This document shows, piece by piece, positions 14,597-45,902 of a stretch of DNA of 64,000 bases; the first letter of the stretch is position 1; each line of letters begins with the position of its first letter. The DNA comes from Syntrophales bacterium (lineage in GTDB: Bacteria; Desulfobacterota; Syntrophia; Syntrophales; Fen-1087). The stretch covers positions 5,730-69,729 of the forward strand of contig JAXDBM010000078.1 of assembly GCA_034678725.1 (NCBI GenBank), given 5' to 3'. A program made the position numbers and the translations under genes. The notes under the pieces were generated by a model. The model was given only the letters and a program-made list of their open reading frames with translations, ran no database searches and was not told where the DNA came from.

Positions 14597-14681
14597 GAGT
14601 TAATTTGTTGAAAATTGTTCAAAAATAATTATATAGGATGACCCTGGCTATTCGGAAAAATCCCTCATGCGAGGCCCGTTG

Positions 14682-16358
14682 ATGCTGAAAGAAAAGACGG
14701 CGACCCGGCTGCGATACCTGCTGCTGTCGCGGGTCGCCATCGTCACGCTGCTGCTGGGTATCGCCATTTTCATGAAGGTCAAGGGCGAGGAGTATCTGCC
14801 CGAGATATCGCTTCGGTCTCTTTCCTGGCTCATTATCACATCCTACATCCTGTCGCTCCTCTATTTTCTTCTCCCCCGCCTGGTACGGAGCATTCAGACA
14901 AATCTCTATATCCAGGCCATCGGCGACGTCCTGCTGGTTACAGGCCTGGTTTATGCGACGGGCGGCATCATCAGCATCTATCCCGTTTTTTACACACTGG
15001 TAATCATCTACTCCGTGTTGTTCCTGGGCAGGCGGGGCGGGCTGATCACCGCCTCCGCGTGCAGCATCGGCTACGGCCTCCTTCTCGATCTGGAGTACTA
15101 CCGGGTTCTGGCCCCGCCCTATTCAACCATGATCCGGGATTACCCGTTCACGGCAAGCTATGTTTTCTCGAAGATCATCACTTATATCGTTTCCTTCTAC
15201 CTGATCGCCTTCCTCGCCATTTTTGTCGTGGAACAGGAAAAGCGGACGAGAACGCTGCTGCGGGAAAAGGAAACCGCGTTCGATCAGCTCGATGTGCTGC
15301 ACCGGAGCATCATCGAGTCCGTCGACACGGGCATCATGACGATCAATCTTCGGGGCCGGATCAAATCCTTCAACCGGGCGGCGCAAGAGATCACCGGCTA
15401 TTCCTTCGACGAAGTCGAAAACAAATATATCGCCGATTTGTTCCCGGCGTACGGACAATTCGTTGCGAAGATTCAGGCGGGGAGCAACCCGGAGCCGGAG
15501 CGAAGCCGGGTGGAAATTCAGATCGAAAGCAGGGAGAAAAAGCCGCTCATTCTGGGCTGCTCCCTTTCCTTTCTGAGCGACGCAGCGGGGAAGCGGATCG
15601 GCAACATCATTGTTTTCCAGGATTTGACGGCCGTCAAGAAAATGGAGGCCAGTGTCGAAAAGAACAGGCGGCTCGCCTTCATCGGCGAAATGGCGGCGGG
15701 CCTCGCCCACGAGATGAGAAACCCCCTGGCGTCGATCGGCGGCTCCATTCAGGTTCTGAACAAAAGCCTCACCCTGAGTCCGGGCGATGAACGCCTCATG
15801 CAGATCATCCTGAGGGGCAAGGATCAGCTTGAGAGCTTCATGCGTGATTTTCTTCTCCTCTCCAGGCCCTCGCCGGGAGTGCCGGAAGCCATCGGAATCG
15901 CGGAGATGATCGAGGAGGTGCTCGAGTCGGTCCGTTACCTGCCGGACTGGCGGGACCGCATCGTGGTCGAGAAGTCTTTCCGGGATCCGGTGCCGCGCAT
16001 TCACGCGAACAAAACGGAAATCCGGCAGCTGATGTGGAACCTCCTTTTGAACGCGGTTCAATCCATGCCGGAAGGCGGCCATCTGCGCGTCGAAGCCGGA
16101 TCGGGCATGGCGGAGGAAGCCTCCGTGACCTGCCTCGAGATCCGGGTCGGGGACAGCGGCCCGGGAATCGCGGAAAAGGATGCGCCCCGGATTTTCGAGC
16201 CCTTTTTTACAACCCGCGAAAAGGGCACGGGAATGGGGCTTGCGATTGTCAACCGGATTGTGGAGAGACATCACGGTAAAATAAAAGTTGACAGCCGGGC
16301 AGGCGAAGGGACGACCTTTACGGTATGGCTCCCCTGCCTGAGGGAAGCGGAGAGGTGA
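14682..16358 (+). CDS. pilS: PilS-like membrane sensor histidine kinase with a PAS domain
   Basis: Multi-TM N-terminus, PAS (SFNRAAQEITG), AHEMRNPL H-box, NLLLNA, DSGPG, FEPFFTT, GTGMGL; adjacent to a sigma54 regulator. Alternative start 14667. Confidence 0.8.
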   Translation: MLKEKTATRLRYLLLSRVAIVTLLLGIAIFMKVKGEEYLPEISLRSLSWLIITSYILSLLYFLLPRLVRSIQTNLYIQAIGDVLLVTGLVYATGGIISIYPVFYTLVIIYSVLFLGRRGGLITASACSIGYGLLLDLEYYRVLAPPYSTMIRDYPFTASYVFSKIITYIVSFYLIAFLAIFVVEQEKRTRTLLREKETAFDQLDVLHRSIIESVDTGIMTINLRGRIKSFNRAAQEITGYSFDEVENKYIADLFPAYGQFVAKIQAGSNPEPERSRVEIQIESREKKPLILGCSLSFLSDAAGKRIGNIIVFQDLTAVKKMEASVEKNRRLAFIGEMAAGLAHEMRNPLASIGGSIQVLNKSLTLSPGDERLMQIILRGKDQLESFMRDFLLLSRPSPGVPEAIGIAEMIEEVLESVRYLPDWRDRIVVEKSFRDPVPRIHANKTEIRQLMWNLLLNAVQSMPEGGHLRVEAGSGMAEEASVTCLEIRVGDSGPGIAEKDAPRIFEPFFTTREKGTGMGLAIVNRIVERHHGKIKVDSRAGEGTTFTVWLPCLREAER

Positions 16359-16360
16359 AA

Positions 16361-17734
16361 ATGGCCAGGATCCTTGTAGTGGACGACGACAAGGGGATGA
16401 GAGAGTTTCTTGAGATTATGCTGGGCAGGGAAGGGTATGATGTCACCGCAACTTTCGACGGGGAAAAGGCCCTCGGCCTTTGCAGGAAAGTTCCCTTTGA
16501 TCTGATCCTGACGGACCTGAAAATGCCCCGGATGGACGGCATCGAGTTCATGAAACGGGCGAAGGATGTCTGCCCCGAAGCCATGATCATCCTGATGACC
16601 GCTTATGCTTCAGGCGAAACGGCCGTTTCCGCCATGAAAGAGGGCGCCTATGATTATATCGAAAAGGATTTCGACATCGAAGACCTGGCGCGTCTGATCC
16701 GGGAGGCGCTGAACAAAAAGGGCGTCAAGAAAAGCGACGCCGAGTTCATGAAGGAACTGGAAGAATCGGTGTCCTTCGGCGGAATGATCGGAAAAAGCAG
16801 GGAAATGCTCAAGGTCTACGCGACCATCAAGAAAATCGCGGGTACCACGGCCAACATTCTGATCCTCGGTGAAAGCGGCACCGGCAAGGAACTGGTGGCC
16901 CGGGCCATCCATGAAAACAGCCCGCGCAACGGGCAGCCCTTTGTCGTCATCAACTGCGGGGGCATACCGGAATCACTCCTCGAATCGGAATTCTTCGGAT
17001 ACATGAAAGGCTCCTTCACGGGGGCCCACACCGACAAGCCCGGTCTGTTCGAGGTGGCGAGCGGCGGCACGATATTCCTGGATGAAATCGGAGATCTTCC
17101 CTCGATCCTGCAGGTAAAGCTTTTGCGCGTCGTGCAGGAAAAAACCTTCCGGCGCATCGGGGGCACGGAGGATATTCGGGTCAATGTCCGGATCATCTCG
17201 GCGACCAATCAGGATCTTTTTACGAAAGTGAGAGAAAACACCTTTCGGGAGGATCTCTACTACCGTCTCAACGTCATTCCGATTCACCTTCCGCCCCTGC
17301 GGGAAAGAAGGGAGGACATTCCCGTCCTGGCAAAGCACTTTATCGAGAAATACTCCCGGGAGTTCGGAAAGGAGATCCGGAACATGTCCGTTTACGCCCT
17401 GGAACTCCTGATGGATTATCCCTTTCCGGGAAATATCCGCGAACTGGCCAACATCATCGAGCGCAGCGTCGCGCTCGAATCCTCCAATATCATTCTTCCG
17501 GAAAACCTCGTCCTGTCGGACAGCCGGGACCCGGCCTTCTCCGTCAGCGATTACCGGTTTCCCGGGGAGGGCGTCGATCTGAACGAGGAGCTGGCCCATA
17601 TCGAGCGGCAATGGATTCGCAGCGCACTCGAAAAAGCGAAAGGGTCCAAGACAAAAGCGGCGGAACTGCTGCACGTCACCGTTGATTCCCTGCGTTACCG
17701 GATTGAAAAGCTGGAGATGGAATCCGGCCCGTAA
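16361..17734 (+). CDS. pilR: PilR-like sigma54-dependent response regulator (REC-AAA+-HTH)
   Basis: VVDDD, TDLKMP, GESGTGKE, GSFTGA, FLDEIG, FREDLYYRLNV, FPGNIREL. Confidence 0.82.
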   Translation: MARILVVDDDKGMREFLEIMLGREGYDVTATFDGEKALGLCRKVPFDLILTDLKMPRMDGIEFMKRAKDVCPEAMIILMTAYASGETAVSAMKEGAYDYIEKDFDIEDLARLIREALNKKGVKKSDAEFMKELEESVSFGGMIGKSREMLKVYATIKKIAGTTANILILGESGTGKELVARAIHENSPRNGQPFVVINCGGIPESLLESEFFGYMKGSFTGAHTDKPGLFEVASGGTIFLDEIGDLPSILQVKLLRVVQEKTFRRIGGTEDIRVNVRIISATNQDLFTKVRENTFREDLYYRLNVIPIHLPPLRERREDIPVLAKHFIEKYSREFGKEIRNMSVYALELLMDYPFPGNIRELANIIERSVALESSNIILPENLVLSDSRDPAFSVSDYRFPGEGVDLNEELAHIERQWIRSALEKAKGSKTKAAELLHVTVDSLRYRIEKLEMESGP

Positions 17735-17742
17735 AATATTTC

Positions 17743-17774
17743 TTGACAACCCCGGCGCTTTGACTCTATAGGAT
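17743..17774 (+). promoter_or_regulatory. sigma70-type promoter of the Phe leader/ABC operon
   Basis: TTGACA at 17743-17748, followed after 18 nt by TATAGGAT. Confidence 0.55.
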
Positions 17775-17792
17775 GACAGAAGGTAAATTAAA

Positions 17793-17882
17793 ATGAAAAG
17801 TCTCGATGTCATGGATCGCCGGTCAGTCCGCTTTTTCGCTTTCTTCAGCTTTTTTAGCGAGGTCTGCCTGCCGCGCTCATGA
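17793..17882 (+). CDS. Phenylalanine-rich attenuator leader peptide (MKSLDVMDRRSVRFFAFFSFFSEVCLPRS)
   Basis: AAGGT RBS at 17780-17784; 6 Phe codons in 8 positions (17832-17855); the stop lies just 3' of the antiterminator 5' arm. Below the ORF-track cutoff. Confidence 0.85.
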   Translation: MKSLDVMDRRSVRFFAFFSFFSEVCLPRS

Positions 17883-17915
17883 CATGAATTGAGCCATGAC
17901 GCCGCGGGCAGACCT
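17860..17915 (+). promoter_or_regulatory. Antiterminator helix of the attenuator (2:3)
   Basis: AGGTCTGCC (17860-68) is the exact complement of GGCAGACCT (17907-15), plus CGCG (17872-75) pairing with CGCG (17903-06); it overlaps the terminator 5' arm. Confidence 0.8.
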
Positions 17916-17939
17916 TTTCGGGCTGCCCGCGGCTTTTTT
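17901..17939 (+). terminator. Attenuator terminator 1 (3:4)
   Basis: Perfect 11-bp stem GCCGCGGGCAG/CTGCCCGCGGC followed by T6. Confidence 0.9.
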
Positions 17940-17942
17940 ATG

Positions 17943-17975
17943 AAGGCCGTGGAATCCGATCCATGGCTTTTTTTT
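17943..17975 (+). terminator. Second tandem terminator (5:6)
   Basis: GCCGTGGA/TCCATGGC stem (one G-U) with a 6-nt loop, followed by T8. Confidence 0.7.
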
Positions 17976-18000
17976 ATCTTTTTTCGAGGAGGACAGGGCG

Positions 18001-19209
18001 ATGACGAAAATGATGAGATGGATGAACGCGATGGGCATGCTGGCCGCGCTGGCCTTTTTCGGCCCGGCCCCTGCTGCGGATGCCGCGGCCATCAAAGTCG
18101 GGGCGGCAATCAACATGACCGGCCCGGCCTCCACCTGGGGCCAGTATCATGCCCGGGGTCAGCAGGATTATTTCCGCTACGTCAACGAGGTCAAGGGCGG
18201 CGTCGCCGGCCGGAAGATCGAGATGATTCTGGTCGACACGGGATACAAGGTCCCGGAAGCCGTCGCGGCCGTGAGGAAGTTTGCCGTGCAGGACCGGGTG
18301 GACATGATCGCCACCTGGGGCGCCGGGGAGGGGCTGGCGGCGAAACCCATCATCCAGAGCTACCGGATTCCCACAATCAATTACTCCACGAGCTGGGAAA
18401 TTCTGGAACCGCCCGTAGATTACATGTATCTCCCCTTCGGCAGCTACCGCATGGATTGCTACGCGGTGATCGATTACATCCGGACCATCCACAAGGGAAA
18501 GGAAGCGCCCAAAATCGGACTGCTGACCTACAACAACGCCTACGGCCGCTCCATTCACCAGCCGACCCGCGATTACGCGGCCAAACAGAAGGTACAGATT
18601 GTCGCAATCGAAGAGTTCCCCCCGAAGACGGTGGACCTGACTACGGAACTGCTGCGGCTCAGGCAGAAGGGCGCTGAATACGTCTTCATGCAGATGCTGC
18701 CCGCCACCATTATCACGACTTTCAAGAGCGCCGACCGGATCGGCTATGCGCCGCAATTCTTCGGGACATGGACCTCCACGGACCCGGACTTTTTCAAGCT
18801 CGGAAAGGGCCTGATCCGGGACCGGCTGAACATGCAGTTCCCCGGCGGTCTGCCCTCGGACAACACGAAGGGAATTGCGCTCATGAAGGAGCTTTGGAAG
18901 CGCTACAAGACGGTTGACCGGTTCGATGCGGCCTACTGGGAGGGCGTCGTCGTCGGCATGATCATGGAACGGGCCTTTGTCCGGGCGCAGGAATCCTTCA
19001 AGCAGGTGAACCGGGAGACGATCAACAAAGCCATGGAGTCGTTCCGGAATGAGGATTTCGGAGGCCTCGTGCCGAACGTCACCTACAGCAGCAAGGACCA
19101 CGGGGCGTCCTTCAAGGCCAGAATGGTCCGGGTGCGTGAGGACGGCTCCCTGGTCCCGCTGACCAACTTCTACACGCCCGGAAAAGAGAAGATCAAACTG
19201 ACAAAGTGA
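18001..19209 (+). CDS. LivK/LivJ-family ABC transporter substrate-binding protein
   Basis: Signal peptide; IKVGAAINMTGPAS, GGVAGRKIE, DTGYKVPEA; GGAGG RBS. Confidence 0.92.
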   Translation: MTKMMRWMNAMGMLAALAFFGPAPAADAAAIKVGAAINMTGPASTWGQYHARGQQDYFRYVNEVKGGVAGRKIEMILVDTGYKVPEAVAAVRKFAVQDRVDMIATWGAGEGLAAKPIIQSYRIPTINYSTSWEILEPPVDYMYLPFGSYRMDCYAVIDYIRTIHKGKEAPKIGLLTYNNAYGRSIHQPTRDYAAKQKVQIVAIEEFPPKTVDLTTELLRLRQKGAEYVFMQMLPATIITTFKSADRIGYAPQFFGTWTSTDPDFFKLGKGLIRDRLNMQFPGGLPSDNTKGIALMKELWKRYKTVDRFDAAYWEGVVVGMIMERAFVRAQESFKQVNRETINKAMESFRNEDFGGLVPNVTYSSKDHGASFKARMVRVREDGSLVPLTNFYTPGKEKIKLTK

Positions 19210-19222
19210 GACGGAAAATCCG

Positions 19223-20050
19223 ATGAAGTCACAGCGCAGCAGGCCGGGCATCTTCAGCGCGCGGAGTCGGGAAGATGCCCGGGCCGAACTGGACATTTCG
19301 AAGCTGTCCCTGCATTTCGGCGGCGTCCGGGCGCTGCACGACATCGATCTGGCCGTGCGCACCGGTGAGCTGGTCGCGGTGATCGGTCCGAACGGCGCGG
19401 GCAAGACCAGCCTGCTGAACTGCATGACCGGTTTCTACTGGCCGCAGCAGGGCAGCATCCGTTTCAACGGCCGGGACATCACCCATCTGCCGTCCCACGA
19501 GCTGGTGCGGATCGGCATCGGGCGGACCTTTCAGAACATCGAGCTTTTTCCGGGCATGACGGTGCTGTCGAACATGCTGCTGGCGAGGCACATCCACTGC
19601 CGCTGCGGCCTGGGCGCCGCGGCGCTCTTTGCATCCTCCGCCCGGAAAGAGGAGATCCGGCACCGGCTCGTCCTGGAAGAGGTGATCGATTTTCTGGAGA
19701 TGCAGGCGATCCGCAAGAAAACGGTCGGATCGCTTCCCTACGGCCTGATGAAACGGGTCGAACTCGGACGCGCCCTGGCGCTGGAGCCGAAGCTCCTCGT
19801 CCTCGACGAGCCCTTTGCCGGCATGAACCTCGAAGAAAAGGAGGACATGGTCCGGTTTCTCATCGAGCTCAACGAGGCCTGGGGCCAGACCATGATCCTG
19901 GTGGAGCATGACATGTCCATTGTCATGAGCATCTCCCAGCGGATCATGGTCCTGAATTTCGGCGAGAAGCTGGCGGAGGGAACGCCCGAAGAAGTGCGGA
20001 ACCACCCGGAGGTGATCAAGGCCTACCTGGGTGACGCGGAATCCCTTTGA
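19223..20050 (+). CDS. LivG-type ABC ATP-binding protein
   Basis: FGGVRAL, GPNGAGKT, RTFQN, LPYG, LDEP, HPEVIKAYLG. Confidence 0.93.
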   Translation: MKSQRSRPGIFSARSREDARAELDISKLSLHFGGVRALHDIDLAVRTGELVAVIGPNGAGKTSLLNCMTGFYWPQQGSIRFNGRDITHLPSHELVRIGIGRTFQNIELFPGMTVLSNMLLARHIHCRCGLGAAALFASSARKEEIRHRLVLEEVIDFLEMQAIRKKTVGSLPYGLMKRVELGRALALEPKLLVLDEPFAGMNLEEKEDMVRFLIELNEAWGQTMILVEHDMSIVMSISQRIMVLNFGEKLAEGTPEEVRNHPEVIKAYLGDAESL

Positions 20051-20061
20051 AGAGGGCAGCG

Positions 20062-21966
20062 ATGACGGCGAATCCGGCAGAAAAAACACTTCCCCAGGTC
20101 CTGGCCCTGCAGGCCGAGCGCCTGGGCGCCGCGACGGCAATCCGCGAGAAGGCCCTCGGCATCTGGCAGCGATACTCCTGGGCGGACTATTTCCGCTACG
20201 TGAGGCATGTGGCCGCCGGCCTGATGTCACTCGGGCTGAAGCGCTGCGAACATGTCGGCCTCATCCTGAACAACCATCCGGAGTGGCTCTTCAGTGAACT
20301 GGGGGCCCAGTCTCTGGGCGCCGTGACGCTGAATCTGTTCACCTCCTCGATCACTGACGAGCTGTGCCTGGCCCTCAACCGGATTCAGGCGGCCTTTGTC
20401 TTCGTCCAGGACCAGGAACAGGTCGACAAGCTCCTGGACGCCCGCGACAGGCTCGCGCATGTCCGCCGCGTGATCTACATCGACCCCACCGGAATGCGGA
20501 CCTACGGGAGCGAGCCCTGGCTGATCGGATTCAGCGAGCTGGTCCGAATGGGAGAGGCGCTCGAACGGGAACACCCGGATCGCGTCCTGCAGGAGATTCA
20601 TAAGGGCGGCCGGGGCGACACCGCCCTCATGATCCTCACTTCCGGAACGACCGGGCTGCCCAAACTCGCCATGCTATCGCACCGGAACCTGACAGCCATC
20701 GCCGAGAGCTGGGTCGAGGCCATGGCCATTCAAGAGGGCGAAAACTGGATCTCCATGTCGCCGCCCGCCTGGATCGTGGACCAGATGTGGGGTGTCGGGG
20801 TCGCCCTGGTCGGCGGAATGACGATGAACTTTCCCGAAACTCCGGAGACCGTCACGGAGGATTTCCGTGAAATCGGTCCGTCCCTGCTCATCACCGCCTC
20901 CCGGTTCTGGGAGGACCTCGCTTCCCGGATCATGGTGAAGATGTCCGATGTGGGGATGGTCAAGCGGAAAATGTTCGGCCTCGCCGAGCGGATCGGCCGC
21001 AGGGTCGCAGAAAAGGAAACCCGGGGAGAAGCCGTCCCTTCCTCCCTGAAAGCCCTCCACCGGCTCGCTTCTCTGACGGTTTACCGGCCGCTGCTCGACC
21101 GGATCGGCTGCCTGAAGCTGCGCAGCGCATTCACCGGCGGCCATCCCATCAGCCCGGATGTGATCGGCTTTTTCAGAACCATCGGACTCAATCTCAAGCA
21201 GTGTTACGGTCTGACCGAAGCCGGCGGCATTTTTCAGATCCAGCCGGACGATCAGGTGAAGCTGGAGACCGTGGGCAAGCCCCTGCCGGGGACCCTCGTC
21301 CGGCTTTCGGAAGACCAGGAGGTCCTGGTGCGCAGCGACGCCGTGTTCGCCGGCTATTATCAGGACTTCAAGTCGACGGAGGCCGCATTCGCCGACGGCT
21401 GGCTGCGAACGGGCGACGCCGGCTATCTGGACCGGGACGGCCATCTGCTGATCATCGGGCGCAAGGAGGAAATTATCCGCAACAAGAGCGGGGAGGCCTT
21501 TTCACCGGACTTCATCGAAACCCGCCTGAAGTTCAGCCCCTACATCAAGGAGGCAGTGGTTTTCGGCGAGGGGCGCCCCTTCCTCACGCTGATGGTCAAC
21601 ATCGATTTCGGAAACGTCGGCGTCTGGGCGGAGGAGCGGATGATCCCTTATACGACCTACATGGACCTGTCCCAGCAACCGGCCGTGGAAGAGCTGATTC
21701 TGGGCGAGATTCAGCGGATCAACGCGCAACTGCCGGACATCATGAAAATCCGGAAGTTCTTCCTCCTCTACAAGCTTCTGGACGCCGACGACGAGGAGTT
21801 GACCCGCACCGGCAAGGTGAGGCGGCGCTTTGTCTACGGCCTTTACATCAAGCTGATCGAGGCCATGTACCGGGACCAGTGGGAGGTCGAGGTCAAGGCG
21901 AAGGTCCAGTACCGGGACGGACAGGTCGGCAAGGTGGAAACCAAGGTGAAAATCATACCGGTTTAA
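20062..21966 (+). CDS. AMP-dependent acyl-CoA synthetase (long-chain fatty acid-CoA ligase family)
   Basis: TSGTTGLPK, YGLTE, TVGKP, WLRTGD, IIGRKEE, ELTRTGKVRR. Confidence 0.92.
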   Translation: MTANPAEKTLPQVLALQAERLGAATAIREKALGIWQRYSWADYFRYVRHVAAGLMSLGLKRCEHVGLILNNHPEWLFSELGAQSLGAVTLNLFTSSITDELCLALNRIQAAFVFVQDQEQVDKLLDARDRLAHVRRVIYIDPTGMRTYGSEPWLIGFSELVRMGEALEREHPDRVLQEIHKGGRGDTALMILTSGTTGLPKLAMLSHRNLTAIAESWVEAMAIQEGENWISMSPPAWIVDQMWGVGVALVGGMTMNFPETPETVTEDFREIGPSLLITASRFWEDLASRIMVKMSDVGMVKRKMFGLAERIGRRVAEKETRGEAVPSSLKALHRLASLTVYRPLLDRIGCLKLRSAFTGGHPISPDVIGFFRTIGLNLKQCYGLTEAGGIFQIQPDDQVKLETVGKPLPGTLVRLSEDQEVLVRSDAVFAGYYQDFKSTEAAFADGWLRTGDAGYLDRDGHLLIIGRKEEIIRNKSGEAFSPDFIETRLKFSPYIKEAVVFGEGRPFLTLMVNIDFGNVGVWAEERMIPYTTYMDLSQQPAVEELILGEIQRINAQLPDIMKIRKFFLLYKLLDADDEELTRTGKVRRRFVYGLYIKLIEAMYRDQWEVEVKAKVQYRDGQVGKVETKVKIIPV

Positions 21967-21979
21967 GGAGATTTTTCGA

Positions 21980-22858
21980 ATGGACTTTTTCGTTCAACTG
22001 CTCGTCAACGGCATCAGCATCGGTCTGCTCTACGGCCTGTCCGCGATGGGCTTCGTCATGATCTTCAAATCGTCCAGCGTCCTGAATTTCGCCCACGGGG
22101 AACTCCTCGCCTTCGGGGCTTTTCTGTTCCTGGCCATGGTCTCCTGGGCCGGACTGCCCCTGCCGGTGGCCTTTCTGGTAACGCTGGCCGGCTGTTTCTC
22201 GCTGGGGTTCCTCGTGGAGCGCGTCTTCCTGCGCCCCCTCATCGGCGAACCCCTGATTTTCGTGATCATGCTGACCGTCGGCCTGGCCTCGATGTTCAAG
22301 GGGCTGCTCCTGCTGGTGTGGGGCGGCAACCTCCAGACCTATCCGGACTTTCTGCCGGAGGCGCTCGGCATCCGCTGGGGCGCCATCCAGGTTCCGCCCG
22401 TCTACGTGGCCGCGCTGTTCATCGGGATGATCTTTCTGTGCCTGTTCGGCCTGTTCTTCAAATACTCCTCCCAAGGCATCTACATGCGCTCGGTGGCGGA
22501 CAACCAGAAAGCCGCCCTTTCCCTGGGGGTCCACGTCAAACGGGTCTTCGCGCTCTCCTGGGCCATCGCCGCACTGGTGGCCGGAATGAGCGGCATCGTT
22601 CTGGGCATCATCAATGGCATCAACGTGCACGACCTGAGCGCCATCGGCCTCAAGGTCTTCCCTGTGGTGATCCTGGGCGGGCTGGATTCCATTGGCGGAG
22701 CCATCATCGGAGGCATTATCATCGGCCTGCTGGAGACCTTCACGGGCGGCTACCTGTCGCCATCACTCCGCGATGTGGTTCCCTACATCGTCCTGGTGCT
22801 GATTCTGCTGGTGAAACCCTACGGCCTCTTCGGCCTGAAAGAGATCGAGCGGGTGTGA
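21980..22858 (+). CDS. LivH-type ABC permease
   Basis: NGISIGLLYGL, VLNFAHG, SVADN..AALSLG, LGGLDSI. Confidence 0.93.
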   Translation: MDFFVQLLVNGISIGLLYGLSAMGFVMIFKSSSVLNFAHGELLAFGAFLFLAMVSWAGLPLPVAFLVTLAGCFSLGFLVERVFLRPLIGEPLIFVIMLTVGLASMFKGLLLLVWGGNLQTYPDFLPEALGIRWGAIQVPPVYVAALFIGMIFLCLFGLFFKYSSQGIYMRSVADNQKAALSLGVHVKRVFALSWAIAALVAGMSGIVLGIINGINVHDLSAIGLKVFPVVILGGLDSIGGAIIGGIIIGLLETFTGGYLSPSLRDVVPYIVLVLILLVKPYGLFGLKEIERV

Positions 22859-22860
22859 AC

Positions 22861-23931
22861 ATGCGAAAACCGAGATTCCACCCTTGCGGAAATTACCGGG
22901 AAGACTACCGGGAAGAGCTGACGGTCTTCGAGACGGACTTCGGCCGCCTCTGGCTGGGCATCGGCCTTGCCTTCCTGTTTCTGGTTCTGCCCTGGGTCGT
23001 GACACCCTACATGGTCTACGTTCTGAACATGATCGGCATTGCCGCGATTGCCGCGATCGGCCTGAACATTCTGATCGGATACACCGGACAGATCTCTCTC
23101 GGTCACGGCGCCTTTTTCGGCGTCGGCGCCTACGCGGCGGGAATCCTGGCCACTTCGGCGGATCTGCCCTTCGTCCTGGTCGTGCCGGCCGCCGCCGCCG
23201 TGACGTCTCTGGTGGGGATGATCTTCGGGATTCCCTCAGTCCGCCTGAAGGGCCTCTACCTGACCATTGCCACCCTGGCCGGACAGTTCATCGTGGAGTA
23301 CATCCTGCTGCACTGGGAAGGTTTGACAAAGGGCACGATGGGGATCACGCTGCCGAAGGCCTCCCTGCTCGGATGGGAGATGGGCGGCGACCGGGGCTTC
23401 TTCTTCGTCATCTTCATCTGCCTGATCGGAATGACCTGGCTTGCGGTCAACCTCATCCGCACGAAGTACGGCAGGGCTTTCATCGCGATCCGGGACAACG
23501 ACCGGGCGGCCGAGGGAATGGGCATCCCCATCTTCCGCTACAAGCTGCTTTCCTTTGCCATCAGCTCCTTCTACGCCGGATTTGCCGGCGCCCTCTGGGC
23601 GTATTACATGGTGAGCATCACCACGGAGCCTTTCAACCTCGGCCTTTCCGTCGAATACATCGCCATGGTGATCATCGGCGGAATGGGAAATATCTCCGGC
23701 TCGATCTTCGGCGCCGTCTTCATCACCGGCCTGAACGAACTGCTGCGCTGGGCGACGGACGCGCTGATGAACATGGGGGTGTTCACAAGCACCGGCCTGA
23801 ACATGGCGCCGCTTCGCGAATTCGCCTTCGGAGCCGCGATCGTGCTTTTCATTCTCTTCGAACCCCGGGGGCTGGCGGAGGTTTGGCGGATCGTCCGCTC
23901 GAGCTTCCGGCTCTGGCCTTTTTCATACTGA
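22861..23931 (+). CDS. LivM-type ABC permease
   Basis: GLNILIGYTGQISLGHG, GRAFIAIRDND.AA..MGI, YKLLSF. Confidence 0.93.
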   Translation: MRKPRFHPCGNYREDYREELTVFETDFGRLWLGIGLAFLFLVLPWVVTPYMVYVLNMIGIAAIAAIGLNILIGYTGQISLGHGAFFGVGAYAAGILATSADLPFVLVVPAAAAVTSLVGMIFGIPSVRLKGLYLTIATLAGQFIVEYILLHWEGLTKGTMGITLPKASLLGWEMGGDRGFFFVIFICLIGMTWLAVNLIRTKYGRAFIAIRDNDRAAEGMGIPIFRYKLLSFAISSFYAGFAGALWAYYMVSITTEPFNLGLSVEYIAMVIIGGMGNISGSIFGAVFITGLNELLRWATDALMNMGVFTSTGLNMAPLREFAFGAAIVLFILFEPRGLAEVWRIVRSSFRLWPFSY

Positions 23932-23943
23932 AGGAGTCTGGCG

Positions 23944-24744
23944 ATGCGGGATGTCCTGCTGCAGGTGAATAACATATCCGTCGTTTATTCCGACGTCATC
24001 CAGGTCCTCAAGGGGGTGTCCCTGGCGGTGGAAAGGAAACACATCGTTTCGCTGCTTGGCAGTAATGGCGCCGGCAAGACGACGACGCTGAAGGCCATTT
24101 CCGGACTGCTCAAACCTGAAAACGGCGAGGTGACGGACGGCTCGATCCTCCACAGCGGCAAACCCATCCACAACCAGCCTCCCGAGACCATCACCCGGCT
24201 GGGCATCATTCAGGTCCTCGAGGGCCGCCAGCCGTTCAAGTACCTGACCATCGAAGAGAACCTGAGGGTGGGGACGGCCACCCGCTGGGGCAAGGCCTAC
24301 AAGGAGGACCTGGAGCTGGTGTACGGATATTTTCCCGCCCTGCTGAAACGAAGGAAAGCGTTGGCCGGCTACTGCAGCGGCGGAGAGCTGCAGATGCTCG
24401 TGATCGGCCGTGCCCTGATGGCCCACCCGCAGCTTCTCCTGCTGGATGAGCCGTCGCTGGGTCTGGCGCCGCTGGTCGTCAGCGAAATCTTTCGGATCAT
24501 TCGGCGGATCAACGAAGAGCAGGGGACGACCATTGTCCTCGTCGAGCAGAACGCCCGCATGGCCCTTCAGATCGCCCACTACGGGTACGTGATGGAAAAC
24601 GGCAAGATCGTCATGGAGGGCCCGGCTGAAGACCTGGTTGAAAATCCCGATATCAAGGAATTCTACCTGGGCATGGCCGCCTCCGGCGCCGCAAAATCCT
24701 ACCGGGACGTCAAATCCTACCGGCGCCGCAAGCGCTGGCTGTGA
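23944..24744 (+). CDS. LivF-type ABC ATP-binding protein
   Basis: GSNGAGKTT, SGGELQM, LDEPSLGLAP, VEQNA. Confidence 0.93.
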   Translation: MRDVLLQVNNISVVYSDVIQVLKGVSLAVERKHIVSLLGSNGAGKTTTLKAISGLLKPENGEVTDGSILHSGKPIHNQPPETITRLGIIQVLEGRQPFKYLTIEENLRVGTATRWGKAYKEDLELVYGYFPALLKRRKALAGYCSGGELQMLVIGRALMAHPQLLLLDEPSLGLAPLVVSEIFRIIRRINEEQGTTIVLVEQNARMALQIAHYGYVMENGKIVMEGPAEDLVENPDIKEFYLGMAASGAAKSYRDVKSYRRRKRWL

Positions 24745-25578: not shown

Positions 25579-25788
25579 TCATGCACGTTAAACATCCAAC
25601 CGATTCATAACCGAAAGAACAAAGACTCAGAAAGGGAAGGGGGTGAACAGAACGAGCGTTCGAGCGGCTTTTCCGGTGAACCGGACGCAGGGCAGCTTCT
25701 GTTGGGATTGAGATTGCGTCCCGCTTCCTCGTCGCCGCGGAAAGCCGAAAGGGGTGTCTTTTTTGACGCAGGAAAAAAGGAGGGGAGA

Positions 25789-27120
25789 ATGAGTTGGAAA
25801 GAGATTTATCAGAGCAGGTTGATGTCCGCCCAGGATGCCGCAAAGATCATCCAGTCCGGAGACCGTTTCTGGACGCCGCTGTGTCTGGGACAGCCGTCCA
25901 TGCTGATCATGGACCTGATCGCCGACCGGGTCGATGAGCTCAAGGACGTCGAGTACATGAATGCACTCACGCTGCGGCCATACAAAATCTTCAAACCGGA
26001 GTACCGGAAAACCTTCAGTGTGGTATTTGGATTCTACAGCTCTCCCCATTTACAGCAGATCGCAAAAAGCGAGTGGGCCAACTTCATCCCGGCCCAGAGC
26101 TCCGACGTGTCCCTGAAAAACGCGGCCCGGAACCGAGCATACCCCCGCCGGACCGGAATCATCACACAGGTCACGCCGCCGGACAGCCACGGCTATGTCA
26201 GCCTCGGCCTCGATACTTTCTACACCGGCCGCATCATGGACCAGAGCGATTTCATCATTGCCGAGGTAAACGACCAGATGCCCCGCACCTACGGGGACAC
26301 GAACTTTCATGTCTCCCGCTTCACCGCTTTCTTCGAGAATTCCAGCCCACTGCCGGCCGTGCCGACACCGCCAGCGTCGGACGTGGAAATCCAGATGGCG
26401 AAAAACGTCGTCGGCCTGATGAAGGACCGGGACTGCTTCCAGGTAGGCATCGGAGCGATCCCGGCCATGATCAGCAAGCTCCTCCAGGACAGCAATCTGA
26501 AGGACCTGGGCATTCACACGGAGATGGCGCCGGCGGGGACCAATATCCTCGTGGATAAGGGGATCGTCACCTGCAAACACAAGAAGGTCAATCCCGGCAA
26601 GATCCTCCTGGCCTTCACCATGGGCGACAAAGAACTCTACGAGTGGCTGGCCAACAATCCCATGTGCGAGTGGCGTTCCACGCTTTACGCCAACAACATC
26701 AGCATCATCTCCCAGGAGGAGAATCTCGTGGCCATCAACGGCTCCCTGGAAGTGGACCTGACGGGGCAGATCTGCTCCGAGTCGCATGGCAACATCATGC
26801 GGACGGGCACCGGAGGGCAGCTCGACTTCGTCATCGGCGCTTTCTGGTCTCCCGGGGGGAGAGCGATCAACCTCGTTCCTTCGACCGCCCTGGACGACAG
26901 CGTCTCCCGCATCGTTCCCTATCTGTCCAACGGTGCCCGGGTGACCGTGCCCCGCCACTACGCCCAGTACATCGTCACCGAGTACGGCGTCGCCGACCTC
27001 ACCGGCAGGACGGAGCCGGAGCGAGCCGAGGCCCTCATCCAGATTGCCCATCCCAAGTTCCGGGAAGAGCTGGAGAAGGGCGCAAGGGAGCGGGGCCTTC
27101 TTAGGAAAAAAACATTCTGA
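25789..27120 (+). CDS. Acetyl-CoA hydrolase/CoA-transferase family protein (4-hydroxybutyrate CoA-transferase-like)
   Basis: FQVGIGAIP, GIHTEM, INGSLEVDLTGQICSES, GTGGQLDF, IVTEYGVADL, LIQIAHPKFR; GGAGG RBS. Confidence 0.92.
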   Translation: MSWKEIYQSRLMSAQDAAKIIQSGDRFWTPLCLGQPSMLIMDLIADRVDELKDVEYMNALTLRPYKIFKPEYRKTFSVVFGFYSSPHLQQIAKSEWANFIPAQSSDVSLKNAARNRAYPRRTGIITQVTPPDSHGYVSLGLDTFYTGRIMDQSDFIIAEVNDQMPRTYGDTNFHVSRFTAFFENSSPLPAVPTPPASDVEIQMAKNVVGLMKDRDCFQVGIGAIPAMISKLLQDSNLKDLGIHTEMAPAGTNILVDKGIVTCKHKKVNPGKILLAFTMGDKELYEWLANNPMCEWRSTLYANNISIISQEENLVAINGSLEVDLTGQICSESHGNIMRTGTGGQLDFVIGAFWSPGGRAINLVPSTALDDSVSRIVPYLSNGARVTVPRHYAQYIVTEYGVADLTGRTEPERAEALIQIAHPKFREELEKGARERGLLRKKTF

Positions 27121-27145
27121 TCCGTTGACCGCTCCAACGATTTTC

Positions 27146-27188
27146 GGGCCGGACAGGCTGAAGGCAGCATCGCCGGACTGTCCGGCCC
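27146..27188. repeat. GC-rich branched inverted repeat between the CoA-transferase and MFS genes
   Basis: GGGCCGGACAG/CTGTCCGGCCC 11-bp stem enclosing a GCTG/CAGC mini-hairpin; no U-tract. Confidence 0.6.
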
Positions 27189-27250
27189 CTTCAAGAACCG
27201 GCAGCGGAGATCAACACGCGACACCGGAAAACCGACCGGAGTGAAGCCTG

Positions 27251-28438
27251 ATGAGCGGCACGGAGGAAAAAGGGGTATACCGCGCCCTCTTCATCGTGAA
27301 CTTCCTGGCCTGCCTCGGCTTCGGCATCGCGGACCCCTTTTTCCCGGTCTATGCCACGTCCAACGGCGCCGCGGGCATTCATCTGGCCCTCATCTTCTCC
27401 GGTTTTGCCGCCGCCAAGACCCTCTTCTCGCCCCTGACGGGCTGGTGGTCCGACCGCATCGGCAGGCGGCGCCTTCTCGTGATCGGCCTGTTCGCACACG
27501 CTGCCATCGCGATCGGATATCTCTGCCTGCCGTCGCCCTCGTCTCTGATCCTCCTGAGATTCCTGCAGGGCATCGCGGCGGCCCTCGTCCGGCCCGTTTC
27601 GCTCGCTTACATCGGCGACATGGCCCCGGCCCGGCATGAGGGAACCGCCATGGGAACTTTCGACATTTCCTACTACGCGGCTCTCGCCATCGGTCCGGTG
27701 GCGGGCGGGATCGTCAAGGACACGTTCGGCTTCCCCGGGATCTTCATCTGCCTCTCGGCCCTCTGCATGCTCGCATTTCTGACAGCCCTGGTTTTCGTGA
27801 GGCATTTCGGCAAGAACAGGGTAAGCGAAATCAGAACACTCCGGGTCGATCTGTCCGTGCTGAAAAAAAGCGGGACCCTCATCGCGCTGTGCGGATTCAT
27901 CTTTTCGAGGACCTTCGGGATTGTCTATTTCGGGATGTTCCTGCCCATTTTCATGTTTGAGAACCTGCGTCTCACCGGGATCGAGATGGGGGTGGTGATG
28001 GGCGCCAACACGATCGTGACGGCGCTGATGCTCCGTCCCATGGGGCTCCTGTCCGACCGCGTCGCGCGGGACCGCCTGATCCTGACCGGCGGCACGGCCG
28101 CCGCATTGCTCACGGCCTTCCTGCCTCTGTCCGAAACGTTTCCACACATTCTTTTCCTGAGCATCGGCATCGGATTTGCGAGCGTTCTGTCCCTGCCCGC
28201 GAGTTCGGCCCTGCTGGTCGAAGAGGGGAACCGGCAGGGCATGGGGCTGACCATGGGCATCTTCAACGCCGCGATGAATCTGGGGGCCGTTCTCGCGCCG
28301 CTGGCCGGCGGCATCCTGTTCAGCCTGTTCGGGATGAAGGCCGTCTTTTATGGCGCGGGGTTTCTGGGCTTGGGGGGAGTATGCTTCTACCATCTGGCGA
28401 GAAACACGCGGAAGGGCGACAGCGGCCAGGGATCCTGA
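27251..28438 (+). CDS. MFS transporter (12 TM)
   Basis: Motif A GWWSDRIGRR and LSDRVARD in the second half; GPVAGG motif. Confidence 0.92.
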   Translation: MSGTEEKGVYRALFIVNFLACLGFGIADPFFPVYATSNGAAGIHLALIFSGFAAAKTLFSPLTGWWSDRIGRRRLLVIGLFAHAAIAIGYLCLPSPSSLILLRFLQGIAAALVRPVSLAYIGDMAPARHEGTAMGTFDISYYAALAIGPVAGGIVKDTFGFPGIFICLSALCMLAFLTALVFVRHFGKNRVSEIRTLRVDLSVLKKSGTLIALCGFIFSRTFGIVYFGMFLPIFMFENLRLTGIEMGVVMGANTIVTALMLRPMGLLSDRVARDRLILTGGTAAALLTAFLPLSETFPHILFLSIGIGFASVLSLPASSALLVEEGNRQGMGLTMGIFNAAMNLGAVLAPLAGGILFSLFGMKAVFYGAGFLGLGGVCFYHLARNTRKGDSGQGS

Positions 28439-32932: not shown

Positions 32933-33598
32933 CTAAAAACCGGTCAGGGGGGGATTGTGGGTCGCGATCTCCGGCATCACCGGTCCGCCCTTAAGGGTGA
33001 CCTTCCGGCCGCTGACCTGGATTCTGCCTTCCGCGTAGAGCTGAATGGCCTGGGGATAAATCCGGTGTTCCTCCTTCAGGATCCGGGCCGCCAGCGTATC
33101 CGCCGTGTCGGCGTCCAGAACGGGCACGACCGCCTGAATGATGACGGGTCCCGTGTCGACGCCCTCATCGGCGAAATGCACCGTGCACCCGGAAAATTTC
33201 ACACCGTAGTCGACGGCCTTCTGCTGGACGTGCGTTCCGGGGAAAGCGGGAAGCAGGGCCGGGTGGATGTTCATGATCTTCATGGCAAATGCGTTCAGGA
33301 ACAGGGGCGTCAACAGCCTCATGAAACCGGCCATCACCACCAGTTCCACACCGTGAAACTGAAGCACGCTGATCATCTGCCGGTCGAAGTCCTCACGCTT
33401 CCGGAATTCCTGATGGCGGATGACGACCGCCGGAATGTGATGCCTCCTGCAGCGTTCGAGGGCATAGGCCTCGGGATTGTTGCTGATGACGACCTTGATC
33501 TCCGCGGTGAGGGTCCCCCGCTCGATATTGTCGATGATGGACTGGAGATTCGACCCGCTTCCCGATACCAGTATGCCGATGCCCAACCTGGATTTCAT
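32933..33598 (-). CDS. purN: Phosphoribosylglycinamide formyltransferase
   Basis: SGSGSNLQ, AGFMRLL, NIHPALLPAFPG, GCTVHF, DTGPVI, EHRIYP. Confidence 0.97.
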   Translation of the reverse strand: MKSRLGIGILVSGSGSNLQSIIDNIERGTLTAEIKVVISNNPEAYALERCRRHHIPAVVIRHQEFRKREDFDRQMISVLQFHGVELVVMAGFMRLLTPLFLNAFAMKIMNIHPALLPAFPGTHVQQKAVDYGVKFSGCTVHFADEGVDTGPVIIQAVVPVLDADTADTLAARILKEEHRIYPQAIQLYAEGRIQVSGRKVTLKGGPVMPEIATHNPPLTGF

Positions 33599-44096: not shown

Positions 44097-45902
44097 ATGT
44101 CTGTTTTGATGTCTGGAAACGAGGCGATCGCCAGAGGCGCCTACGAGTGCGGGGTGCGTTTCGCATCCGGGTATCCGGGGACCCCCAGCACGGAGATCAT
44201 GGAGGCTTTCGCCCGATACGACGGCGTCTATGCCGAATGGGCCCCCAACGAAAAGGTGGCCCTGGAGGTGGGCATCGGCGCCGCGCTGGCCGGCGCAAAG
44301 GCCCTGGTCACCATGAAGCACGTGGGGGTCAACGTGGCGGCCGATCCTCTGTTCACGGCCAGCTACACGGGCACGAACGGGGCCCTGGTGATCATATCGG
44401 CGGACGACCCTTCCCTGCACAGTTCGCAGAACGAGCAGGACAACCGGAATTACGCGAAATTCGCCAAAGTTCCCATGCTGGAACCGGCCGATTCGGACGA
44501 GGCAAAGCGGTTCGTCAAGCTGGCCTTCGAGATCAGCGAAAAATTCGACACGCCGGTTTTCCTGCGGCCCACGACGCGCGTCGCCCATTCCAAGTCCGTC
44601 GTCGAAACCGAAGCGCCGAAGGCGGTGGAGGACCGGACGGCCATTCAAATCAACGCCGCCAAATACGTCATGGTCCCCATCAATGCCCGCGCGCGCCGGT
44701 TGGAGGTCGAAAAGCGGACGCTCGCGCTTCGGGAATTCGCCGAGACCTTTTCCGAAAACCGGATGGAGATCAACGGCACGGAGGTCGGAATCATCACGGC
44801 GGGCATCCCCTATCATTACGCCAAGGATGTCTTTCCCGAATATTCCTACCTGAAGCTCGGCATGGTCCACCCCTTGCCGGTCCGGATGATCCGTGAATTC
44901 GCGTCCCGGGTGAAAAAGCTCTACGTGGTCGAGGAACTTGACCCCTTCATCGAGGAGCAGGTCCGGGCCATGGGCATCGCCGTCACCGGAAAGGAGGTCT
45001 TTCCCTACACCAACGAATTCGATCCCGGCGTGATTGAAAAGGCCATCCGCGGCGAGGCCGGGAAACCGCTGAGCCTGCATGCCATTGCCATCCCGCCGCG
45101 GCCGCCCAACCTCTGTCCGGGCTGCCCCCATCGCGGGCTCTTTTATGTCCTGGGAAAAATGAAGGCCTTCGTGACGGGCGACATCGGCTGCTATACGCTG
45201 TCCTACATGAAGCCGCTGGAAGGCCTGCATTCCTGCGTCTGCATGGGGGCCAGCATCGGCATGGCCCACGGCATGAGCAAGGCGCTGAAGGAGAAGGGAA
45301 AGGGAAAAGTGGTAGGGGTGATCGGCGACTCGACCTTCATTCATTCCGGAATCACGCCGCTGCTGAACCTGGCCTACAACAAGGGCGATGCCGTCATCGT
45401 CATCGCGGACAACCGGACCACGGCCATGACGGGCATGCAGGAGCATCCGGCAACCGGCTTCACCCTTCAGGGTGAGCAGACCGGCCAATTGAATTTTGCG
45501 GAACTGGCCTCCACCCTGGGCATCAAAAGCGTCCGCACCATCGACCCCTACGACATCAAACAGACGCGGACCGTCATGAAAGAGGAACTGGCCAGACCGG
45601 GTGCGTCGGTAGTGATTTCCAACCGGTCCTGCGTCCTGTTCAAGAGGCACCAGACGGGACCGCAGAAACCCCTTCGCGTCGATCCCGCAAAGTGCATCGG
45701 ATGCAAGGTCTGCCTCGGCCTCGGCTGCCCGCCGATTTCCTGGAGGAAGTTCGAGGACATGCCGGAAAGCGAGATCCGCAAGAACGCAAAGAAACAGGAG
45801 GGCCATTCCGTCATTGATCGGAGTCTCTGCAACGGCTGCACGGTATGTCAGCAGCTCTGCAAGGCCGGCGCCATCGGAGAGGAGGATAACGCTCATGAAT
45901 GA
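44097..45902 (+). CDS. iorA: Indolepyruvate:ferredoxin oxidoreductase alpha subunit
   Basis: SGNEAIARG, GYPGTPSTE, NEKVALE, MKHVG, HSSQNEQD, PNLCPGCPHR, GDIGCY, GDSTF.HSG, C-terminal 2x[4Fe-4S]. Confidence 0.96.
   Translation: MSVLMSGNEAIARGAYECGVRFASGYPGTPSTEIMEAFARYDGVYAEWAPNEKVALEVGIGAALAGAKALVTMKHVGVNVAADPLFTASYTGTNGALVIISADDPSLHSSQNEQDNRNYAKFAKVPMLEPADSDEAKRFVKLAFEISEKFDTPVFLRPTTRVAHSKSVVETEAPKAVEDRTAIQINAAKYVMVPINARARRLEVEKRTLALREFAETFSENRMEINGTEVGIITAGIPYHYAKDVFPEYSYLKLGMVHPLPVRMIREFASRVKKLYVVEELDPFIEEQVRAMGIAVTGKEVFPYTNEFDPGVIEKAIRGEAGKPLSLHAIAIPPRPPNLCPGCPHRGLFYVLGKMKAFVTGDIGCYTLSYMKPLEGLHSCVCMGASIGMAHGMSKALKEKGKGKVVGVIGDSTFIHSGITPLLNLAYNKGDAVIVIADNRTTAMTGMQEHPATGFTLQGEQTGQLNFAELASTLGIKSVRTIDPYDIKQTRTVMKEELARPGASVVISNRSCVLFKRHQTGPQKPLRVDPAKCIGCKVCLGLGCPPISWRKFEDMPESEIRKNAKKQEGHSVIDRSLCNGCTVCQQLCKAGAIGEEDNAHE

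Follow-up and report, generated by a model that had tools for sequence, protein, structure and literature searches.

What does a run of phenylalanine (Phe) codons do in front of an operon that would, by its transporter genes, be taken for a "branched-chain amino acid" uptake system? The question is raised by a 64,000-nucleotide stretch of a Syntrophales bacterium (assembly GCA_034678725.1, contig JAXDBM010000078.1, positions 5,730 to 69,729), hereafter the window, in which a short leader open reading frame (ORF) and a set of overlapping hairpins precede six genes for an ATP-binding cassette (ABC) importer and an acyl-CoA ligase. All coordinates given below are positions in this window, and both the leader and the operon lie on its + strand. 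Comparison of sequences indicates that the element is very probably a classical ribosome-mediated leader-peptide transcription attenuator that senses charged tRNA-Phe. Its anatomy, its conservation, the selection acting on its Phe-coding capacity and on its helices, and the match between codon runs and operons among its paralogues support this reading, according to which Phe itself would regulate the operon.

The sigma-70-type promoter (17743..17772) consists of a -35 TTGACA (17743-48) and a -10 TATAGG (17767-72) at a spacing of 18, and is followed by a Shine-Dalgarno-like AAGG (17780-83, extended as AAGGT to 17784) located 9 nt 5' of the leader ATG. The leader ORF comprises 29 codons, from the ATG at 17793 to the TGA at 17880-82, and encodes MKSLDVMDRRSVRFFAFFSFFSEVCLPRS. 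Its regulatory codon cluster, FFAFFSFF (TTT TTC GCT TTC TTC AGC TTT TTT, 17832..17855), contains six Phe in eight codons, at codons 14, 15, 17, 18, 20 and 21. Arm A (region 2; AGGTCTGCCTGCCGCG, 17860..17875), the 5' strand of the putative antiterminator, is embedded in the last codons of the ORF, and arm B (region 3; CGCCGCGGGCAGACCT, 17900..17915) is common to the antiterminator A:B and the terminator B:C. The latter, T1 (17901..17939), is an 11-bp hairpin in which GCCGCGGGCAG (17901-11) pairs with arm C, CTGCCCGCGGC (17923-33), followed by T6 (17934-39). Another hairpin, T2 (17942..17975), formed by arms D (17942-53) and E (17960-71) and ending in a T8 run, lies directly 5' of the ribosome-binding site GAGGAGG of the first gene (17986-92; ATG 18001). 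An earlier sequence-only reading of this DNA had described the promoter, the ribosome-binding site, the 29-codon Phe ORF, arm A and the terminator sharing an arm and ending in T6, and all of them are where it placed them. It had also held that the Phe cluster exists in the ATG frame alone, which the comparison of reading frames upheld, as the other two are closed or Phe-poor. The A:B helix is present in the RNAfold minimum-free-energy structure of 17770-17945.

The element is kept far beyond this one genome. Orthologues of the solute-binding protein (SBP) encoded by the first operon gene were found in 47/61 same-order relatives (identity 69-94%; 67-94% across the order and beyond), and the 450 nt 5' of each of these 47 genes were surveyed. 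The promoter, the in-frame Phe-rich ORF, arms A, B and C, and the T-run are all present in 44/47; among the other three loci, one is cut by a contig end, with arm A onward present, and two are without a recognisable leader. One family (L038 of G024 and L045 of G043) keeps the SBP orthologue, with leader ORF and arms either missing or degenerate, and looks to have lost the attenuator.

A covariance model, R1, was built from the first relatives' set (its E-values are rough, as the calibration was short), and a scan of named genomes gave 288 loci. The best 80 of these 288 were analysed, all of them from metagenome-assembled genomes (MAGs) labelled Syntrophales, Syntrophaceae, Smithellaceae, Syntrophus sp., Smithella sp. 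or "Deltaproteobacteria". R1 matches directly 5' of the SBP gene in 79/80, and the single negative locus has only 79 nt of upstream DNA. An in-frame orthologous leader ORF is found in 74 of the 77 MAG loci with complete upstream DNA, and three further leaders are interrupted by contig ends. The 74 complete leader peptides have a median length of 27 aa and a median of six Phe (range 4-9), with ..RFFAFFSFFSEVCLPRS, ..GFFFSFFSFFGEVCRPRS, ..FFGFFSFFGFFREVCLLSS and ..GGFFSFFIGVCPPRL as typical forms. The leaders before SBP orthologues in two other families of the phylum read MAPRRLTHSFGFFFFD and ..RFTYFFSFRFFGVVCPTGS; the Phe-rich ORF is in frame across the order and in these two families as well.

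The surrounding signals are kept along with the ORF. The motif TTGACA-17/18-TATAAG/TATAGG stands at the same position in virtually every orthologous locus, regardless of the gene upstream (TTGACA-17-TATAAG in the relatives), and the relatives' leader starts are preceded at 6-12 nt by purine-rich GGAG/AAGG motifs. The element is retained with the SBP gene though the upstream gene varies among loci, and its chance origin is excluded because it is kept in >120 orthologous loci. The sequence-only reading had conceded that a Phe-rich upstream ORF unconserved in orthologues would speak against it; the alignment of orthologous upstream regions revealed conserved Phe codons and covarying stems, the element being carried by the 44/47 and 79/80 loci mentioned above. 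One SBP orthologue (G006:C12:333919-334912) aligns as two overlapping segments (residues 72-291 and 283-402), a sign of a probable frameshift, pseudogene or assembly error; upstream of it (L048) the leader is intact.

Selection on the leader acts at the level of codons. Among the TTN codons within the clusters of 106 distinct leaders, TTT occurs 503 times, TTC 123 times, TTA twice and TTG once (TTY 626 vs TTR 3), i.e., the third position is free between the two Phe codons and almost never changes to Leu. The number of Phe per cluster in the same set has a median of six and ranges from 3 to 8. The cluster is retained behind N-terminal halves of the leaders that show no conservation and whose lengths vary by whole codons; Phe pairs are separated by small, variable residues (S, G, A, V, Y). 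In most loci the stop codon is located 19 nt past the first base of arm A, in a few 8-16 nt; in one locus (L047) the ORF stands in another frame with respect to arm A, but still reads the cluster as Phe and ends at a stop within arm A. As to codon choice, about 80% of the Phe codons of orthologous leaders are TTT, the genes of the window (14667-24744) use TTC for 68%, and the window's own leader contains three TTT and three TTC. The nucleotides of arm A (GGTCTGCC, 17861-17868) are near-invariant across the order, and similar ones are found in the aro, trp and ilv paralogues. This conservation exceeds the needs of pairing or coding.

The helices are maintained likewise. Pairing was counted on an alignment (A1) of 44 sequences, with slid-strand controls for A:B and B:C. 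The A:B helix (10 pairs) is paired in 96.6% of cells (slid controls 30-48%) and the B:C helix (13 pairs) in 95.4% (slid controls 33-54%); in B:C, 27 cells are changed on both sides, UA<->CG and AU<->GC swaps being found in 10 sequences each. At columns 108 and 113 of A1, both in strand B, the changes preserve pairing with A as well as with C: an A->G change in B gives G-C with C and U-G with A, and for the U->C change both partners are G. The pairing of antiterminator and terminator is maintained in this way, via compensatory and wobble changes. The helix of T2 (D:E), present in 37/44 relatives, is paired in 87.7% of cells, with both-side changes in 8/10 pairs. Predicted energies in the window are -35.4 kcal/mol for the A:B hairpin and -29.8 kcal/mol for T1, and the stability of A:B is greater than that of B:C in 36/44 orthologues.

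Folding of the window RNA with its 5' part masked, as by a ribosome, separates two states. With the mask to 17848 or 17858, which places the A-site on Phe codons 14-18, the antiterminator and a C:D helix form and T1 is absent. With the mask to 17895, which corresponds to a ribosome at the stop codon, T1 forms, and the longer transcript also contains T2 (-16.7 kcal/mol). The sequence-only reading had predicted that a ribosome at the TGA would mask arm A and favour the terminator, and these constrained folds agree. In the fold of the window free of ribosomes, ATGTCAT of the early ORF pairs with ATGACAT of the stop region in a 1:2-like helix, and T1 forms; as modelled, this is the classical "no translation, termination" state.

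We infer ribosome stalling, the function of the terminators, the C:D relay and the supply of Phe by the operon from this arrangement, and the proposed course of events is as follows. Transcription from the sigma-70 promoter would start near 17779, and a ribosome would immediately engage the 29-codon leader. With ample Phe-tRNA, this ribosome would reach the TGA at 17880 and cover arm A, B would pair with C, and T1 would stop the polymerase at 17934-39; polymerases escaping T1 would meet T2 (17942-75) as a back-up. When Phe-tRNA is scarce, the ribosome would stall early in the cluster, on roughly four of its six Phe codons (17832-46), the free arm A would capture B, and T1 would be blocked. The freed arm C may then pair with D and pre-empt T2, so that transcription would enter the genes for the SBP, LivG, the ligase, LivH, LivM and LivF.

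The relay by which A:B would free C and C:D would block T2 is plausible on the folding model. The possible second antiterminator (17927..17952) would join the 3' arm of T1 and part of its U-run with the 5' arm of T2. When the window is folded as under starvation, the minimum-free-energy state pairs C with D (17927-37 with 17942-52) at -18.0 kcal/mol vs -16.7 kcal/mol for T2, and T2 is lost. The potential for C:D pairing extends to 91% of cells in the 44 sequences, with both strands mostly conserved, and covariation is weak, one informative pair being G-C in three sequences vs A-U in 30 and G-U in nine. Wherever the second hairpin exists, C:D is worth -12 to -20 kcal/mol, and the polymerase makes D ahead of E. 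In the same genome, the 3' half of C is likewise complementary to D in the ilvB and aro paralogues. Equilibrium folding was set aside as a test of this relay, which stays a kinetic hypothesis, as only 5/37 orthologues choose C:D over T2.

The element has five of the six testable features of ribosome-mediated attenuators, namely a leader ORF with a Shine-Dalgarno motif, a Phe codon cluster, mutually exclusive helices, an intrinsic terminator and the appropriate stop/stall geometry, the last of which holds, in the constrained folds, only for stalls on Phe codons 14-18. Several observations weigh against the attenuator as described or against its connection with Phe. The mask to 17868, corresponding to a stall on the last Phe codon, covers arm A and gives T1, so only the upstream Phe codons can signal; the sequence-only reading had proposed this mask as the counterpart of that to 17895, and its expectation was borne out for masks on the early Phe codons and for the terminating ribosome, not for 17868. 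The 1:2 protector/pause helix is not general (mean z = -1.1; p < 0.05 in 10/44): over the 44 orthologues it is only a tendency, and the helix in the fold of the window is lineage-specific. The equilibrium fold of the whole A-to-E region picks the terminators in 25/44 orthologues, with arm A free, so that the switch must be kinetic (co-transcriptional), as in other attenuators. The gene pheA is present in this genome and in 57/61 relatives, which rules out Phe auxotrophy as the reason for the operon, and implies that the operon supplements Phe synthesis rather than substitutes for it. In a MAFFT alignment too remote to settle the matter (18% identity), Ser79, Tyr202 and Glu226 of LivJ are replaced by Ala, Leu and Trp in the SBP; Thr102 and Tyr150 are kept, and Tyr18 is changed to Trp. 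We take Ser79, Thr102, Tyr202 and Glu226 of LivJ to be residues that hold the alpha-ammonium and alpha-carboxylate groups. Finally, the operon ligase is of fatty-acid type.

Does the scaffold occur elsewhere with other codons? R1 matches 177/401 genomes sampled from the phylum. In the genome of the window it finds two more full-length sites, and a motif search adds two, giving at least five attenuators of one design with that of the window included. Their shared layout consists of a leader ORF, a GGTCTGC-type arm in its 3' end and a GCCRYGG-type terminator, and a clear second hairpin is present in the trpE, aroF and ilvB paralogues. The first paralogue (MSGFKRGQTERNFKSWYGYYYFCAPVCPTLRRT, G000:C15:24720-24940, L081) carries a Trp/Tyr/Phe run (WYGYYYF) before the gene for 3-deoxy-D-arabino-heptulosonate 7-phosphate (DAHP) synthase (aroF), 2.4 kb 5' of pheA; it has two tandem hairpins, and the same geometry is found in G017, G020, G023, G040 and G044. 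Two leaders with WWW precede trpE (MSGMNMNRNASTRMNWWWHSSQEGFVRR, G000:C15:~33330-33570, L083) and a trpB2-type gene (..GSRYGWWWQAENVCPQALFL, G000:C20 ~18500-18700, - strand), and one with a Val/Ile run (VSVVIV) precedes ilvB (MNRHKPIHRVLNVGNCVSVVIVQAGSAARFP, G000:C53:19084-19275, L082). Of 64 further matches in the phylum that were read, those before SBP orthologues carry Phe runs, most others have mixed Y/F/W runs before genes for DAHP synthase, the 2-amino-3,7-dideoxy-D-threo-hept-6-ulosonate (ADH) synthase-type aldolase of the alternative shikimate entry, aroK or an aminotransferase, and in a few the run is weak or another kind of gene follows. That codon runs match their operons is predicted by the sensing of tRNA charging, and not by an arrest peptide, a binding protein or chance. 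The element is one member of a lineage-specific attenuator family in which one RNA scaffold accepts exchangeable codon runs.

The spacer, searched as DNA against the genome, has the locus itself as its sole copy. A small-ORF scan of the 2.56-Mb genome for single-residue runs (at least five in nine codons) was noisy, with Arg-rich artefacts of the 58% GC genome; among the ORFs listed, the window leader alone was a clean short ORF with at least six Phe in nine codons, and the scaffold paralogues were not found among the matches listed, the covariance model having found them instead.

Three other explanations of the leader were considered. One, very improbable, holds that the Phe-rich peptide acts itself, either as an arrest peptide sensing a small molecule in the style of TnaC or SecM or as a small membrane peptide. 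The leader peptide is hydrophobic, and its C-terminal motif (S/G)(E/G)VC(L/P)PRS is conserved at the peptide level. However, this conserved C-terminus coincides with RNA arm A, whose nucleotides are conserved beyond coding need, and the number and spacing of Phe vary (3-8; FFxFFxFF, FFFF, FFFSFFSFF), with the leaders of family f67 ending after FFFFD. In the paralogous scaffolds, moreover, the runs are of W, Y or V/I and agree with the trp, aro and ilv operons behind them, as expected of tRNA-charging sensing and not of a dedicated arrest peptide.

We consider it very unlikely that a trans-acting factor is responsible, be it an RNA-binding protein on 9-nt-periodic RGC-UUY-UUY repeats or the ligand of a riboswitch, with translation of the ORF irrelevant. 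Repeated triplets are the targets of TRAP or HutP, and the Phe codons form three ~9-nt repeats (GCUUUUUYG-like) that resemble them; A:B also forms by default with arm A unmasked. On the other hand, no Rfam family was matched; the start codon and Shine-Dalgarno motif, the open frame and the stop at arm A are conserved, including in the frame-shifted L047; and the paralogues swap the U-rich repeats for UGG or UAU runs, which would require a different protein for each. The Rfam cmscan of 17600-18100 at E <= 10 matched no leader, riboswitch or T-box family, its best matches being unrelated small RNA models below gathering scores.

Hardly credible is the idea that the hairpins form a (double) terminator of the upstream NtrC-type regulator, with the ORF a chance product of a T-rich spacer and the operon promoter located downstream. 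In its favour, the regulator gene lies on the same strand and has its end 170 nt upstream, with no other terminator between, and many relatives have this regulator as their upstream neighbour. Against it, regulator and ORF are separated by a conserved TTGACA/TATAAG promoter, the ~25-nt gap from T2 to the SBP gene, Shine-Dalgarno motif included, is too short for a promoter, the element accompanies the SBP gene despite a different or divergent upstream gene (L007, L013, L017, L018, L020, L023, L024, L027, L028, L031), the ORF is in frame in >100 loci with the TTY excess given above (626 vs 3), and arm A, useless to a plain terminator, is near-invariant and complementary to B.

The proposed attenuator resembles several known systems. 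E. coli pheL encodes a short leader peptide with a Phe run, and the element shares with enterobacterial pheL-pheA and pheM-pheST the short Phe-run ORF, the strand-sharing helices, the terminator before the structural genes and the passage from stall to read-through. Unlike pheL and pheM, it would control an ABC importer and an acyl-CoA ligase, not a biosynthetic enzyme or a synthetase, it has two tandem terminators, it belongs to the Syntrophales (Desulfobacterota), and its 1:2 helix is not general. It does not match the Rfam model Phe_leader RF01859, and is therefore an analogue, not a homologue, of pheL. The pheL/pheM architecture claimed by the sequence-only reading stands accordingly as the same functional logic (five of the six class features) and not as a match to the Rfam family. 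Further likeness is found with E. coli trpL, in the ribosome-gated exclusive helices, in a stop codon whose position lets the terminating ribosome cover region 2, and in the no-translation fold of the window, with its 1:2-like helix and terminator. In contrast to trpL, region 1 of the window is lineage-specific, the regulatory codons occupy the loop that separates regions 1 and 2, and the second terminator would be chained to the first via the possible C:D helix.

Leaders of aromatic and transporter operons offer other comparisons. Corynebacterium glutamicum aroR-aroF is an aromatic leader-peptide attenuator of an aro operon. The phylum-wide scaffold of the window also carries Y/F/W runs before aromatic-pathway genes; aro-operon attenuators differ in having mixed aromatic codons and serving biosynthesis, whereas the window element is almost pure Phe and stands before genes for uptake and activation. 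Transporters under such control are not without parallel: Vitreschak et al. reportedly predicted, in 2004, candidates controlled by His attenuators in proteobacteria, and T-box-controlled amino-acid transporters occur in Firmicutes. In these cases, as is proposed for the window, uptake is switched on by a shortage of the cognate charged tRNA; the differences lie in the amino acid, the lineage and the acyl-CoA ligase embedded in the window operon. An attenuator before aroA'-aroB'-pheA-aroF-tyrA of Desulfovibrio vulgaris was predicted in 2005 on structure only (PMC1173090), and is the one related item that the literature searches brought up. Literature searches of incomplete coverage (few subscription journals) found no description of a Phe leader before an ABC/ligase operon or of the Syntrophales scaffold family, and to this extent the remark of the sequence-only reading that such a target was not known to have been described holds.

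What, then, is controlled? The six genes, all on the + strand, encode the SBP (Peripla_BP_6, Pfam 8.6e-53; 18001..19209), a LivG-type ABC ATPase (19223..20050), an AMP-forming acyl-CoA ligase of 639 aa with AMP-binding and AMP-binding_C_3 domains (20047..21966; FadD11-like, below the family cut-off), a LivH-type permease (21980..22858), a LivM-type permease (22861..23931; BPD_transp_2, 4.2e-48) and, as the last gene, a LivF-type ABC ATPase (23944..24744). The Pfam domain matches bear out the LIV-type transporter and CoA ligase of the sequence-only reading, and the HAAT/LIV-type importer set is complete, with a Peripla_BP_6 SBP, two BPD_transp_2 permeases, and LivG and LivF ATPases. The LivM frame given here is a corrected one: ORF 22884-23972 was rejected as LivM, being the wrong frame without a Pfam match. 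This out-of-frame ORF still receives tblastn "homologues" because the DNA is conserved. Six distant genomes have the six genes in the same order, the ligase again in the middle, at an identity of 63-69% for the ligase and 67-79% for the SBP.

The ligand is less clear than the genes. The best solved relative of the SBP is 3LKB, a Thermus "branched-chain amino acid binding protein" (1.6e-33), and both the LivJ residues and the PDB relatives of SBP and ligase are ambiguous as to the ligand. The conserved embedded ligase speaks for an acid substrate trapped as its CoA ester, and it points to an acid precursor rather than, or besides, the free amino acid. Many SBPs of COG0683 bind aromatic or fatty acids, not amino acids, and some adjoin CoA ligases; in Rhodopseudomonas palustris, COG0683/Peripla_BP_6 systems bind aromatic acids, fatty acids and dicarboxylates and adjoin such ligases (PMC3223731). 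As in the window, LIV-type SBP, permeases and ATPases are there genetically coupled to an acid-CoA ligase; the R. palustris systems differ in being catabolic, with no attenuator control known and no close sequence relation to those of the window shown.

The operon would supply Phe by importing either Phe or a precursor acid, e.g., phenylacetate, that is then activated with CoA. Salvage of the phenylacetate type is a reasonable reading, though we hold it to be less likely than not, and direct import of Phe stands beside it as equally possible. The window also encodes iorA (POR_N + TPP_enzyme_C) and iorB (POR), identified by Pfam at 44097-46473; no leader was found before iorAB, upstream of which the gene for a tetratricopeptide repeat (TPR) protein ends at 20 nt. 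The indolepyruvate/arylpyruvate:ferredoxin oxidoreductase of other anaerobes can carboxylate arylacetyl-CoA to arylpyruvate. A joint scheme can be drawn, tentatively and with the odds against it, in which an aryl acid (phenylacetate) would be imported and activated with CoA, reductively carboxylated by IorAB and transaminated to Phe, under a phylum-wide attenuator kit in which one stall, relayed along A:B / B:C / C:D / D:E, would disarm two terminators in succession.

Analogous support for salvage comes from another family of the phylum, in which Phe- and Tyr-leaders precede apparently paralogous NDP-forming acyl-CoA synthetases; acid-CoA ligases under aromatic-codon leaders hence recur. The loci concerned are L215:3700-6057 and L217 (G353) and L216:1-2691 (G238). 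A Phe-rich leader, ..SEFFSTGFSFFFFSWTGPP, stands before a 701-aa NDP-forming acyl-CoA synthetase, with the domains CoA_binding_2, Succ_CoA_lig and ATP-grasp_5. A Tyr-rich leader, ..ESYYYYYYFYWRGPP, is located before an apparent paralogous NDP-forming synthetase, judged by its N-terminal sequence, and a third F/Y leader (L215:~1815-1900) before a 527-aa protein without a Pfam match.

The attenuator would extend the known mechanism of trpL, pheL and pheM to uncultured syntrophic anaerobes (Syntrophales/Smithellaceae) and to a non-biosynthetic target, by means of a leader that escapes gene callers and Rfam. Its codon run may serve as a functional label, by which a conserved "branched-chain amino acid" ABC system with a ligase is read as serving Phe supply, a testable hypothesis for a gene cluster that occurs in hundreds of digester, sediment and peat MAGs. 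The at least five copies in one genome (Phe, Trp, mixed aromatic, Val/Ile) form a natural series for the study of attenuator copying and retargeting, which may also reveal if a single ribosome stall can disable two terminators through chained helices.

The neighbourhood of the operon contains further genes on the same strand. After livF and a gap of ~950 nt follow genes for an acetyl-CoA hydrolase/transferase-family protein and a major facilitator superfamily (MFS) transporter (25702-28438); in view of this gap and with no link shown, they were not accepted as operon members. Upstream, the gene adjacent to the leader encodes an NtrC-type response regulator (16325-17734, + strand; Pfam Sigma54_activat, Response_reg and HTH_8). 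A sigma-54 promoter, considered on account of this NtrC-type activator, was rejected, as the spacer contains no -24/-12 match. Together with a PilS-like histidine kinase, the sigma-54 NtrC-type regulator forms a pair directly upstream in the window (14667-17734), and such a PilS-like kinase/NtrC-type regulator pair stands upstream in many, not all, of the orthologous loci.

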